From the IMG/VR virus record IMGVR_UViG_2541047931_000012: a stretch of DNA of 45,439 nt; one strand, written 5' to 3'. Below, piece by piece: positions 28,126 through 29,832 of the stretch. The first letter of the stretch is position 1. Every line of letters starts with the position of its first letter. The DNA comes from a virus. Its lineage: Duplodnaviria; Heunggongvirae; Uroviricota; Caudoviricetes. A program made the position numbers and the translations under genes. The notes below the pieces were generated by a model. That model saw only the letters and a program-made list of their open reading frames with translations. It did no database searches and was not told the DNA's origin.

Positions 28126-28158
28126 GCTTCACCTCCGCAGAGATCAAACGCTGGATGC

Positions 28159-28189
28159 AAAAAAACGCAGGTGCATTTCTGCATCTGTG
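28159..28189 (-). terminator. Rho-independent terminator upstream of ninB (tR2-like position); copy 1 of a duplicated element
   Basis: Minus strand reads cacagatgcagaaatgcacctgcg + ttttttt. Confidence 0.6.
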
Positions 28190-28295
28190 GCAAGGCGAGG
28201 AGTTCAACTTGTGGTCGCATATAATTTCCCAATCATATGCGCAGAAGTCACCGCAGGGTGTTCAGGCCAACGGTGACGGTATTATTGCTTATTGA

Positions 28296-28547
28296 TTATG
28301 ATTTTTCAATTTCATCAATAACCTTGTGATAGACAATACCAGAAAGGCCAACAGACAGTGGATGTTCATGAAATATTGGCTCATTTGCATAAACCCAATG
28401 CCCGACAAATTCTTCTGGGCTTGATATGTATAACTCACGAAGAAAATGGAGATCCCTCTCTACAACTAATTTCGTATCGTCCAAGAGCGCTGCATTTACG
28501 CTAGTTTTATGGCTGTGCATTAATTTACATTTGGTGAAGGACATCAT
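28296..28547 (-). CDS. Hypothetical protein (83 aa)
   Basis: ORF with an upstream aaaaaggag RBS; no family recognised. Confidence 0.45.
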   Translation of the reverse strand: MMSFTKCKLMHSHKTSVNAALLDDTKLVVERDLHFLRELYISSPEEFVGHWVYANEPIFHEHPLSVGLSGIVYHKVIDEIEKS

Positions 28548-28606
28548 GGCAAAAGCTCCTTTTTCTTATGAATCCATATGTTAGCTAAATTGGAGAGACA
28601 CAGTAG

Positions 28607-29221
28607 CTAACGTTGTTTAATAACATTCTGACGCAAATGTGGCAATACTCGACTCCACTTATCATCCTGCCACGGCTGGAATTTTACATGTGCCGTTTCT
28701 CTGGCGAGGATTGCTCGCGCTCTGGTGAGTATCTGGGGATATTCTTGCTCGATGGAAGTGAAGCGACCAGCTTCACGATGCTCCGCAACCTGAAGAAGAG
28801 GAGTAACGTTCTGGCAGGCGGTTAACATCGCATCCCCAGCTCGCCATAACCAAGCAAGTGTGCAAAGTTCGTTATCAGTGAATTGTTTTGTGATCGGGGA
28901 TTGTTGAACTTCTCGATCGAGAATATCCAGAACCCAGCGGCGGAACTCTTTGGCTACAGGAGTTCGTGCAAACATGGCGATCAAATGGGCTCCGCGAAGG
29001 CTAAATACTCGAGACTCCTGCATTCCACGAGGGGTGGTCACTTTGACCACCCTTGTCATCATATCTGTAAATTCATCTGAGTGACGAGAGTAAATGCGCT
29101 GAACTGCTTTATCGTCCGCATATTCCAGAGCTAAACCAACTTCAGTGGCAGTAAGCCAAATTCTGTTATTGTGGCAAATTGGGGTAAACGTCGTTTTGTG
29201 GAATGCTAATTGAGTAGTCAT
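28607..29221 (-). CDS. Bro-N domain protein (putative antirepressor)
   Basis: 204-aa ORF whose N-terminus (AFHKTTFTPICHNNRIWLTATEVGLALEYADDKAVQRIYSRHSDEF) fits Bro-N. Confidence 0.55.
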   Translation of the reverse strand: MTTQLAFHKTTFTPICHNNRIWLTATEVGLALEYADDKAVQRIYSRHSDEFTDMMTRVVKVTTPRGMQESRVFSLRGAHLIAMFARTPVAKEFRRWVLDILDREVQQSPITKQFTDNELCTLAWLWRAGDAMLTACQNVTPLLQVAEHREAGRFTSIEQEYPQILTRARAILARETAHVKFQPWQDDKWSRVLPHLRQNVIKQR

Positions 29222-29377
29222 AGTTTCACCTCATCAGGTTAACCATCACCACCAACGACGCCAATCGACTGGTGGTGAACTGTGCAAGGTTGGCGTAACC
29301 GGCTACTCAAATCCGGCGCTCCCGAAGAAGCCCTCACACAGCCCACCATAATTTGGGCGTAGCCGTGCTTAGCGCAT

Positions 29378-29398
29378 AAAAAAACCGCTTAACGCGGT
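29378..29398 (-). terminator. Rho-independent terminator upstream of the Bro-N gene
   Basis: Minus strand reads accgcgttaagcggt + ttttttt. Confidence 0.6.
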
Positions 29399-29484
29399 AT
29401 GCGTTGAGTAGTATTCCGGGACGCCAATCCCGTGTGCCGATTTTGCGGCAACGCACAGAATATATCCCCAGATAAATCATGTCG

Positions 29485-29574
29485 TCAACCCCAGTAAATG
29501 GACACCATGATGATCACAGCCATAGCTGCTACAACAGTTACAACTACCTCAGGCCAAAACATAACGATTTCCAT
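29485..29574 (-). CDS. Candidate small hydrophobic peptide (~25-29 aa)
   Basis: Minus strand M(EIV)MFWPEVVVTVVAAMAVIIMVSIYWG directly downstream of the copy-2 terminator; weak RBS. Confidence 0.25.
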   Translation of the reverse strand: MEIVMFWPEVVVTVVAAMAVIIMVSIYWG

Positions 29575-29640
29575 ATCACCTTTAGCCGCCAGACGAATAG
29601 AGACTCCCAATTCTGGCTGTCGAAGTAAAACACCGAATGT

Positions 29641-29671
29641 AAAAAATCGTAGGTGCATTTCTGCATCTGTG
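29641..29671 (-). terminator. Rho-independent terminator; copy 2 of the duplicated element
   Basis: Minus strand reads cacagatgcagaaatgcacctacga + tttttt, near-identical to the hairpin at 28159-28189. Confidence 0.55.
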
Positions 29672-29832
29672 AATGGAGAAGATAGGTTGGATTGTATGTG
29701 CGCATAAACGTCCCCGTTTAGCGCAGAAGTCACCGGAGTTGTTCAGGCTCCGGCTTATTAATATTGCCTACTTACAATTAATTTTTCAACTGTTAGAAAC
29801 TTATAATTAGCTGTCTCTTTGTAACTATCAAT

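Follow-up and report, generated by a model that had tools for sequence, protein, structure and literature searches.

The repeated element upstream of ninB is not a generic terminator but a structured, widespread leader that is present in two diverged copies. Both are found in a window of 45,439 nucleotides, i.e., the whole stretch of DNA analyzed here, from a Caudoviricetes virus (IMG/VR record IMGVR_UViG_2541047931_000012). The element is probably the native nin-operon leader of lambdoid phages of the phage 82/DLP12 type, with copy 2 having been recombined onto an antirepressor module. The features are compiled in Table 1.

Table 1. Features of the two leader copies, the adjacent ninB gene and the cassette in between (window coordinates).
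Feature	Position	Strand	Evidence and remarks
ninB/ybcN-type gene, 151 aa	27670..28125	-	NCBIfam NF007281 7e-83; phrog_72 NinB/Orf; PGAP ybcN
Copy 1, intact ninB leader	28122..28309	-	CM R1, nhmmer match, alignment to phage 82 orf33 region
Copy 1 upstream ORF, ylcH/orf33 homologue, 32 aa	28122..28220	-	PGAP WP_224083675.1
Copy 1 hairpin 4	28124..28151	-	Pairs ninB Shine-Dalgarno GGAGG, -14.2 kcal/mol
Copy 1 hairpin 3	28159..28187	-	CAGAUGCA-GAAA-UGCACCUG, A.C mismatch, then U7
Copy 1 hairpin 2	28216..28241	-	GGGA loop (SD-like), upstream-ORF AUG in 3' arm, -11.6 kcal/mol
Copy 1 hairpin 1	28247..28277	-	Loop CCUGAACAC, -13.8 kcal/mol
Copy 1 promoter-like TTGAAA-17-AATAAT	-35 28304-28309, -10 28281-28286	-	Scan, 10/12 matches; putative
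orf83	28296..28547	-	phrog_9613 1.2e-41; function unknown
Antirepressor, Bro-N + P22AR C-terminal domain	28607..29221	-	PF02498 4.6e-10, PF10548 5.6e-16; phrog_245 Ant
C4 antisense RNA	29268..29353	-	RF01695 72.4 bits (GA 45)
IsrK sRNA, c4 a1/b1 sites inside	29378..29450	-	RF01394 60.7 bits (GA 50)
IsrK intrinsic terminator	29384-29398	-	
Promoter-like TTGACG-18-TATATT, placed to start IsrK	29459..29488	-	Scan; putative
Hydrophobic peptide gene, 29 aa (MEIVMFWPEVVVTVVAAMAVIIMVSIYWG)	29485..29574	-	phrog_4612 1.7e-16
Strong SD AAAGGUGAU of peptide gene	29575-29583	-	
Copy 2 run-on upstream ORF, 53 aa	29544..29705	-	Stop/start overlap lost
Copy 2, diverged leader, incomplete in hairpin 4	29622..29789	-	CM R1 78.5 bits; homology stops at 29622
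Copy 2 weakened hairpin 3	29650-29669	-	G>A change, -4.4 kcal/mol
Copy 2 hairpin 2	29700-29724	-	
Copy 2 hairpin 1	29732-29754	-	
Copy 2 promoter-like TTGAAA-18-AATATT	29760-29789	-	Scan; putative

The two copies

Two similar segments had been noticed in the initial annotation, and they are real: 44 nt (28146-28189 and 29628-29671) are 86% and 18 nt (28239-28256 and 29721-29738) are 94% identical, both block pairs having the same offset of 1482. The size of about 100 bp originally given for the repeat has to be corrected, since the alignment reveals some 170 repeated nucleotides on the minus strand. The global alignment, which begins at the -35 hexamer and reaches the 5' arm of the final hairpin (copy 1 ~28137-28309; copy 2 29622-29789), has identical letters in 136 of its 199 columns (68%). 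Their local score of 88 is far above chance (16.3 +/- 2.2 for 500 shuffles, maximum 27), and the likeness goes beyond a generic terminator hairpin. A covariance model made from the leaders of other phages (CM R1) recognizes both, giving 109.2 bits for copy 1 (28111-28280) besides the lower score of copy 2.

Copy 1 extends from the promoter-like hexamers to the stop codon of the upstream ORF, which overlaps the GTG of ninB as GTGA (28122-28125). In copy 2 hairpin 4 has no 3' arm, and in O157:H7 PGAP annotates the ORF of this copy as a truncated pseudogene. The leaders of K-12 and Lambda_4C10 are close relatives of copy 2, with an identity of about 94%. The copies also differ in the type of hairpin 2, copy 2 having that of K-12 and phage 82 and copy 1 a rarer one, both of them covarying. 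On the 3' side of copy 2 follow the gene of a 29-aa membrane peptide, an IsrK/C4 antirepressor module of the P1 immI type and orf83.

Distribution of the leader family

Both copies are homologous to a conserved leader located 5' of NinB/YbcN-family genes, which corresponds to orf33 of phage 82 together with its “possible regulator-binding site” and to ylcH of the K-12 prophage DLP12. The position directly 5' of orf151 (phage 82, X92588) or ybcN (K-12) is alike, and the 3' third of copy 1 is exactly shared with these leaders. The phage 82 and K-12 records annotate only the small ORF, putative -35 and -10 hexamers and an inverted repeat, whereas four covarying hairpins, masking of the ribosome binding site and the duplication are absent from their descriptions.

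Of 5426 complete E. coli genomes 2959 carry the leader, and among the 307 loci examined it is found in 298. These loci include samples anchored on ninB from Enterobacter, Citrobacter, Siccibacter and Phytobacter, which are free of the pattern bias of the first IMG/VR sample. From the examined loci of Pantoea and Rosenbergiella, where NinB is at most 65% identical, it is absent. No Rfam family matches it, and nothing on it was found in the literature on ylcH, on ybcN/rusA/DLP12 or on sRNAs of the ninB region of O157; the sRNAs of Tree 2014 map elsewhere in the prophage, away from the leader. RNA of ylcH is detected in K-12. Promoter-like hexamers, with TTGATT-17-CATAAT as the equivalent, are retained in 150 of 165 distinct upstream segments; between the end of the -10 and the hairpin-1 loop lie 13-14 nt.

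RNA structure and upstream ORF

Across the family the four hairpins are paired in 97.8% of cells, and 33 of 38 base pairs have changed on both sides. The covariation score amounts to 0.543 compared with 0.191 after shuffling, and pairing drops to about 35% once the partners are slid. The underlying alignment is derived from the covariance model and leans to the modelled structure; independent loop-anchored counts agree with the covariation. For hairpin 1 there are 76 different combinations of arms (81.7% paired, against 55% when shuffled) around an invariant loop of the motif NYUGARCNN that includes a U-turn motif. For hairpin 2, 18 distinct stems are 90% paired, with all ten pairs changed on both sides. 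The abundance of G.U pairs on the minus-strand RNA establishes this as the functional strand; a function of the plus strand, on which hairpin 3 forms a perfect stem with G.U, was rejected because of these family-wide pairs. The resemblance of CCUGAA to a boxB/nut-like hairpin is presumably superficial, as the loop has 9 nt and is not a GNRA-like pentaloop.

The upstream ORF comprises 29-34 codons ending as GTGA or ATGA on the ninB start codon. It is open, with its stop overlapping the downstream start, in about 218 of 232 distinct versions, and this overlap survives five different N-termini and three different C-termini. Selection on the peptide was considered and rejected, as the excess in the synonymous fraction (0.30-0.32 vs 0.22-0.24 expected, p about 0.1) is not significant. 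Judged by these comparisons, it is the frame that is conserved and not the peptide. In 71 of 73 distinct 3' segments the downstream SD pairs with part of the upstream ORF, and the stems fall into three covarying families.

Two further pairings were rejected. A long-range helix of GGUGACUUCUGCGC with GCAGAAAUGCACC, picked by RNAalifold on a pattern-biased alignment, joins two invariant blocks, the first of which is altered without compensation in L133, L136, L137 and L144; the 13-bp complementarity of these blocks remains an unexplained observation. For a longer version of hairpin 3 (CAGAUGCAGAAA with UUUCUGCAUCUG) the lineages that swap the 5' half leave the 3' half unchanged.

Hairpin 3 and the question of a terminator

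A minus-strand rho-independent terminator had been ascribed to each copy. The structure meant is hairpin 3, which is weak, lies within the upstream ORF and does not provide the stable GC-rich stem typical of such terminators. The assignment is not supported, the shared blocks being portions of the four-hairpin leader and its ORF. A simple terminator scan of the minus strand flags copy 1 (28186..28163, then U7) and leaves copy 2, with its U6 after a 3-nt spacer, unflagged. The family mean is -6.1 kcal/mol with a conserved A.C mismatch retained, and copy 1 reaches -10 only if the U-run is included in an alternative fold. At least five U within the 8 nt of the tail are found in 186 of 209 distinct versions, U7 in only six. 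K-12 Term-seq locates a 3' end directly after hairpin 1 (CUUCUG^, 572349/50) and none at hairpin 3, in a strain with low expression and an interrupted tract.

Copy 1 had further been equated in place with lambda tR2. Concerning the position this is correct, both lying between P/ren and ninB, directly in front of the latter, but the likeness does not extend to the sequence: lambda 40571-40643 has no similarity with copy 1. The lambda ren-ninB spacer is only 73 bp long and holds tR2, one strong GC hairpin with no upstream ORF, in contrast with the weak hairpin 3 inside a reading frame. Functionally, hairpin 3 and its U-tract could nevertheless play the role of tR2, acting as a possible leaky transcriptional stop.

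Proposed mechanism

Based on the arrangement of these elements we suggest that the leader is transcribed from a sigma-70-like promoter. The RNA would begin with hairpin 1 at its 5' terminus (YUGARC loop), followed by hairpin 2 with an SD-like GGGA loop and the ORF start codon in its stem, by hairpin 3 (GNRA-type loop, U-rich tail) inside the upstream ORF and by hairpin 4, predicted to sequester the ninB SD. Hairpin 2 would limit initiation on the upstream ORF. Translation of ninB would require a ribosome that reads through this ORF, opens hairpin 4 on its way and stops at the start codon of ninB. Promoter activity, translational coupling and attenuation at hairpin 3 are all inferred in this scheme. 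Because ninB is itself preceded by a strong SD, it may to some extent be initiated independently.

Leader-peptide attenuators of the pyrBI and trp type likewise have, ahead of the gene they regulate, a short ORF that passes through a hairpin followed by a U-rich tract. In contrast with them the ninB leader has no supported antiterminator, its 13-bp complementarity being uncompensated in divergent homologues, and what is most clearly conserved in it is the masking of the SD, a feature of translational and not of transcriptional control. The ninB leader appears to share its logic with the isrK locus of Gifsy-1, where a small ORF gates the translation of the next gene (PMC4825925), although its sequence is unrelated to isrK/C4.

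A more far-reaching reading is tentative and rather doubtful, namely that the leader belongs to an undescribed class of phage riboregulators whose YUGARC (U-turn) loop is read by an RNA or protein of phage or host origin, gating translation of the upstream ORF and the nin operon (NinB, RusA, ultimately Q) in the repressed prophage. If true, the truncated copy 2 would put the membrane peptide and the antirepressor module under the same signal.

Somewhat less likely still, each copy could be an independent sRNA gene producing an RNA of about 110 nt that ends at hairpin 3 and acts in trans via the YUNR-type loop of hairpin 1, the ORF being incidental. The invariant loop with its U-turn motif fits this idea, as do the promoter-like hexamers combined with a hairpin and U-rich tract, which under relaxed criteria are present in the 186 versions counted above, and one data set from K-12 in which ylcH RNA shifts independently of ybcN. 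However, more than 90% of the versions keep frame and stop/start overlap, and the downstream SD is masked by hairpin 4, both being properties in cis; the Term-seq data place no 3' end at hairpin 3, and a search of the window for 9-mer complements of the hairpin-1 loop yielded no meaningful target site. A dual role of the leader in cis and in trans is conceivable.

Origin of the two-copy arrangement

The layout of a diverged leader followed by peptide, IsrK and C4 occurs in 300 of 5426 E. coli genomes. The copies of such loci are always diverged (52-84% identity in ten other two-copy loci) and the inserts are variable, which argues for modular recombination and against a duplication made by insertion. 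Phages sharing the leader as a conserved junction would have recombined to the two-copy layout that was then stably inherited, a history that we infer from the present-day arrangement. The duplication as such is ordinary mosaicism of lambdoid phages.

The initial annotation had offered either a cassette inserted with duplication of its junction or a reused module bounded by terminators. The bracketing by two copies of one module is confirmed and reuse is the better option. That an insertion duplicated the target junction, with a rho-independent terminator at each end, appears improbable even though 1.3 kb of accessory genes lie between direct repeats, the hairpin and U7 of copy 1 pass a simple terminator scan and this copy is found at the place of lambda tR2. 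Repeats of about 170 nt with only 68% identity, whose hairpin-2 alleles differ, do not resemble the target-site duplication of a transposon or IS element, and no transposase, integrase or other mobility gene is present between them. In addition, the hairpin of copy 2 is not terminator-like, and the IsrK-C4-ant module is also found without an upstream copy, butted directly to ren.

Recombination at a shared leader recalls the morons and mosaic junctions of lambdoid phages (Juhala 2000, cited in PMC4104026), which comprise accessory genes that bring along a promoter and a terminator and are inserted between conserved phage modules, a conserved sequence being common to the module boundaries as it is here. 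Compared with that description the boundary sequence of this locus differs in being itself a putative functional leader, duplicated and with one copy truncated.

The cassette between the copies

Two RNA genes of the cassette, IsrK and the C4 antisense RNA, had been missed at first. Both score above the gathering thresholds of their Rfam families and, with the antirepressor gene next to them, resemble the isrK-orf45-anrP locus of Gifsy-1 (Hershko-Shalev 2016, PMC4825925) and the c4 RNA of the P1/P7 immI region. A difference from these systems is that the short ORF inside C4 ends 17 nt before ant and does not overlap it. The separate c4-a1b1 model scores 37.8 bits, which is under its gathering threshold (GA 46.7). 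In loci that do not have copy 2 the module boundary lies exactly at GGTTGACG.

The presence of a Bro-N domain, as originally proposed, is verified, both antirepressor domains being above their cut-offs (PF02498 40.4 bits, PF10548 58.8 bits), but the terminator attributed to this gene is located upstream of it and belongs to the IsrK sRNA. The 83-aa ORF was correctly recognized (orf83). It sits in a variable slot directly upstream of the ninB leader that is occupied by other genes in relatives. PADLOC gave no match for the NACHT ORF, orf83, ant or the 29-aa peptide, and an exact-sequence cluster look-up returned only “hypothetical protein” names.

The hydrophobic peptide of 25-29 aa that had been predicted is encoded by an ORF of 29 codons with a strong SD. 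It has a single hydrophobic stretch, and its sole match is phrog_4612 of unknown function, Pfam and NCBIfam (like PADLOC) being blank. The speculation of a type-I toxin, with copy 2 as the structured 5' UTR of its mRNA, finds little in its favor beyond the hydrophobicity, which is retained in the core of three variants including a diverged one, the SD and the long structured region upstream. We regard it as quite unlikely: a scan of 29440-29700 revealed no promoter-like site on the plus strand for an antisense RNA and Rfam no match there, similarity to known toxin families is lacking, one relative has a premature stop and another a charged substitution, and the 276 nt from hairpin 1 of copy 2 through the small ORF fold no better than shuffled sequence (z -1.36).

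Finally, the “possible regulator-binding site” of X92588 and the inverted repeat directly downstream of the -10 might suggest a DNA operator at the start of the element, with the repeat blocks as protein-binding sites, but this is highly improbable because the stem arms differ completely among lineages yet stay complementary around an invariant loop and use G.U pairs, which would be mismatched in DNA.

Significance

The duplication itself is routine and the duplicated leader is the more useful finding. More than half of the sequenced E. coli genomes, including the K-12 DLP12 and O157:H7 prophages, contain this RNA, which is highly conserved, covaries strongly and comprises an upstream ORF. So far annotated solely as a hypothetical gene of 33 aa, it appears to be a regulatory RNA not described before. 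Because of its location at the entry to the operon leading to RusA and the Q antiterminator, the leader may explain the silence of rusA in K-12 and why the nin genes are off in lysogens. As a boundary mark it is of practical use for annotating accessory slots of prophages. The leader copies bound a hot spot with defence-like and antirepressor cargo (NACHT, PD-lambda-1, HEPN).

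Identity and distribution of the repeated element

The segments on either side of the Bro-N gene were described in the initial annotation as a duplicated element of about 100 bp, and pairwise alignment bears this out. Two blocks (44 nt at 86% and 18 nt at 94% identity) are both offset by 1482 nt, and the full similarity extends over ~170 nt at 68% identity, from the -35 hexamer through the 5' arm of the last hairpin, with a local alignment score of 88 versus 16 ± 2 for shuffled sequences. Database comparison identifies the element as the region upstream of orf151/ybcN, and its nature as a structured leader that includes an upstream ORF is well supported. 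Its K-12 equivalent is the ylcH–ybcN junction of DLP12; the phage 82 record shows here putative -35/-10 signals, an inverted repeat termed "possible regulator-binding site" and orf33 overlapping orf151.

Of 5426 complete E. coli genomes 2959 carry the leader, mostly as a single copy, and its profile matches 298 of the 307 loci examined (ninB-anchored samples from other genera and from IMG/VR). By this profile the examined Pantoea and Rosenbergiella loci are devoid of it, and their NinB proteins are at most 65% identical. Lambda differs in having at this position only a 73-bp ren–ninB spacer with tR2 that lacks similarity to the leader. Neither copy matched an Rfam family even at E≤10, and no description of the leader was found in the literature searched. 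In regulatory terms it is of a known type, the upstream-ORF/RBS-masking leaders, possibly with attenuation.

On the minus strand P, the NACHT ORF, the two-copy region and ninB are followed by ninE, ybcO, rusA and Q-like genes. Over the stretch searched (28100-29830) a lambdoid prophage of E. coli 2014C-4135 is 99.9% identical.

Features of the two-copy region and its surroundings
Feature	Position	Strand	Remarks
Replication protein P	32293-32994	-	
NACHT-domain ORF	29833-31785	-	650 aa; Pfam 3e-11; phrog_18297
Leader copy 2 (diverged)	29622-29789	-	
Hydrophobic ORF	downstream of copy 2	-	29 aa; strong SD; phrog_4612 (no function assigned)
IsrK	in cassette	-	60.7 bits; overlaps c4-a1b1 match
C4 antisense RNA	in cassette	-	72.4 bits
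36-codon ORF	29239-29349	-	
Antirepressor (ant)	in cassette	-	Bro-N and P22AR_C domains
orf83	28296-28547	-	phrog_9613
Leader copy 1 (intact)	28122-28309	-	
ninB	27670-28125	-	YbcN type; 151 aa
Hairpin-1 loops	28257-28265; 29739-29747	-	
Complementary blocks, copy 1	28243-28256 with 28172-28184	-	
Complementary blocks, copy 2	29725-29738 with 29654-29666	-	
STnc100	25251-25459	-	131.7 bits
AsxR	25195-25247	+	63.0 bits (the gathering score)

Conserved anatomy of the leader

The anatomy is constant across 232 distinct leader versions. Of 165 distinct upstream segments, 150 have promoter-like hexamers of the TTGATT-17-CATAAT type. Their -10 element ends 13–14 nt ahead of the first loop, which would place the transcript start in the 5' arm of hairpin 1. 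This hairpin has an invariant loop (NYUGARCNN) and freely covarying stems, such as UCAUCGGAG/CUCCGGUGA, GCCGCCGG/CCGGCGGU and GAUACGGAUAG/CUAUCCGUAUC. Hairpin 2 combines a GGGA loop with at least 18 different stems and always holds the start codon of the small ORF within its 3' arm. Hairpin 3 shows an 8-pair stem with a conserved A·C mismatch, a GNRA-type loop and compensatory variants (e.g., CCGAUGGC-GAAA-GCCACCGG), and is swapped for a different hairpin in a few lineages. Hairpin 4 occurs as three covarying stem families; of 73 distinct 3' segments, 71 have the ninB Shine–Dalgarno sequence paired in it.

Covariation was assessed on 103 matches, re-aligned with a covariance model derived from 15 sequences. 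In this set 97.8% of the cells are paired (~35% with partners slid), 33 of 38 pairs are changed on both sides and the covariation score is 0.543 versus 0.191 for shuffled data; such an alignment leans towards its model, but loop-anchored counts made without it agree. The many G·U pairs show that it is the ninB-sense RNA that is structured.

The hairpin-1 loop contains the YUNR U-turn motif CUGA, and the hexamer CUGAAC is repeated ~45 nt further downstream in most leader types (in copy 1 at ~28197-28202, inside the upstream ORF); no partner of these motifs was identified. The two most conserved blocks share a 13-bp complementarity (GGUGACUUCUGCGC with GCAGAAAUGCACC) for which divergent homologues show no compensation; it could reflect an alternative fold of particular lineages, or a coincidence.

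Upstream ORF and proposed mode of action

The upstream ORF is open over 29–34 codons, and in about 218 of the 232 distinct versions it ends on the start codon of the next gene, the two codons overlapping as GTGA or ATGA. The overlap is kept although the ORFs fall into five unrelated N-terminal and three C-terminal types. The gene that follows encodes a 151-aa YbcN-type protein, a 145–149-aa protein or, in a single case, one of 271 aa. Synonymous variants are slightly but not significantly enriched (0.30–0.32 observed versus 0.22–0.24 expected). Judged from these comparisons, it is the frame that is maintained and not the peptide. A ribosome on this ORF would be needed to open hairpin 4 and to deliver termination–reinitiation at the ninB start, initiation on the ORF would be limited by hairpin 2, and some leaky termination could be contributed by hairpin 3 and its U-rich tail.

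Each copy had been said to contain a rho-independent terminator. The corresponding structure, hairpin 3, is analogous in position to lambda tR2 and does carry a U-rich tail (at least five U in the following 8 nt in 186 of 209 distinct versions, U7 in only six), but its mean stem energy is -6.1 kcal/mol and published Term-seq reveals no 3' end at hairpin 3 of the K-12 leader, so that termination here is only weakly indicated. In these data, under two growth conditions, the K-12 DLP12 leader shows an RNA 3' end at 572349/572350 (+), 6–7 nt past hairpin 1 (...CUUCUG) and 19 nt 5' of the ylcH AUG, corresponding to about 28241 and 29723 (-) in the window. A further role of hairpin 1 may be to stop or stabilise transcripts coming from upstream. 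In K-12 a 2-fold increase of ylcH RNA under microaerobiosis was reported, with ybcN not listed.

The antirepressor module

Copy 2 is followed by the 29-aa hydrophobic ORF, a promoter-like site, IsrK, C4, the antirepressor gene and orf83. This cassette is an antirepressor control module of the P1 immI/Gifsy-1 isrK-orf45-anrP type (PMC4825925), and the terminator formerly assigned to the Bro-N gene is that of IsrK, located upstream of it. A 36-codon ORF begins within the C4 RNA and ends 17 nt short of the antirepressor start. By position it corresponds to Gifsy-1 orf45, but the AUGA overlap is missing.

The 29-aa peptide keeps its hydrophobic core in three variants; in one relative it is cut short by an early stop codon, and in one it carries a charged substitution. 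The start of a 57-aa gene call in databases falls within the hairpin-3 loop of copy 2, and its frame is closed in other variants. No antisense promoter, family match or defence-system match was found for the peptide, and therefore hydrophobicity is all that speaks for the suggested type-I toxin.

Origin of the two copies

An insertion duplicating its target, one of the possibilities initially proposed, does not fit the facts; taken as a whole, the initial interpretation is partly right. Besides the divergence seen here, ten other two-copy loci (spacing 1.5–4.1 kb) have always diverged copies, 52–84% identical, with varying cargo, and the IsrK–C4–ant module is also found without copy 2, fused directly to ren at GGTTGACG of the module promoter. 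Copy 2 represents the allele of K-12 and phage 82, with 94% identity to the leaders of K-12 and Lambda_4C10, and copy 1 has a different hairpin-2 allele. Together with the points that follow, these facts fit an origin by recombination of phages at a conserved leader that they share. As a duplication this is ordinary mosaicism.

Homology of copy 2 stops at 29622, within hairpin 4, and its ORF extends to 53 codons. Among 5426 complete E. coli genomes, 300 have the arrangement leader'–peptide–IsrK–C4; O157:H7 is one of them, and there PGAP calls the copy 2 ORF a truncated pseudogene. One of the ten other two-copy loci, in an IMG/VR phage (L082, 6847-11118), is an independent case of leader duplication. 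Its two leaders are both full and lie 4.1 kb apart; after the first come a 32-codon fragment of ninB and a 4-kb insert of unrelated sequence (380-aa, 619-aa and 84-aa), after the second a 271-aa gene.

Variable sites in the neighbourhood

What lies between the antirepressor gene and the ninB leader varies, and this slot has equivalents in loci L003/L006, L095 and L307. It is occupied by orf83 in the window, a 169-aa ORF in PhiR26_1, a 118-aa ORF in L095/L038 and a HEPN-domain gene with its partner in O157:H7. The NACHT ORF, which had no PADLOC match, sits between P/ren and copy 2, where relatives carry an alpha/beta hydrolase or PD-lambda-1, which points to a hot spot for defence or accessory genes with the leader as its boundary. 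Elsewhere in the window, AsxR and the convergent STnc100 adjoin three minus-strand tRNA genes (Arg-TCT, Arg-TCG and Met-CAT; region 25195-25784), a layout described in EHEC prophages for the moron site located 3' of PR' (PMC4104026).
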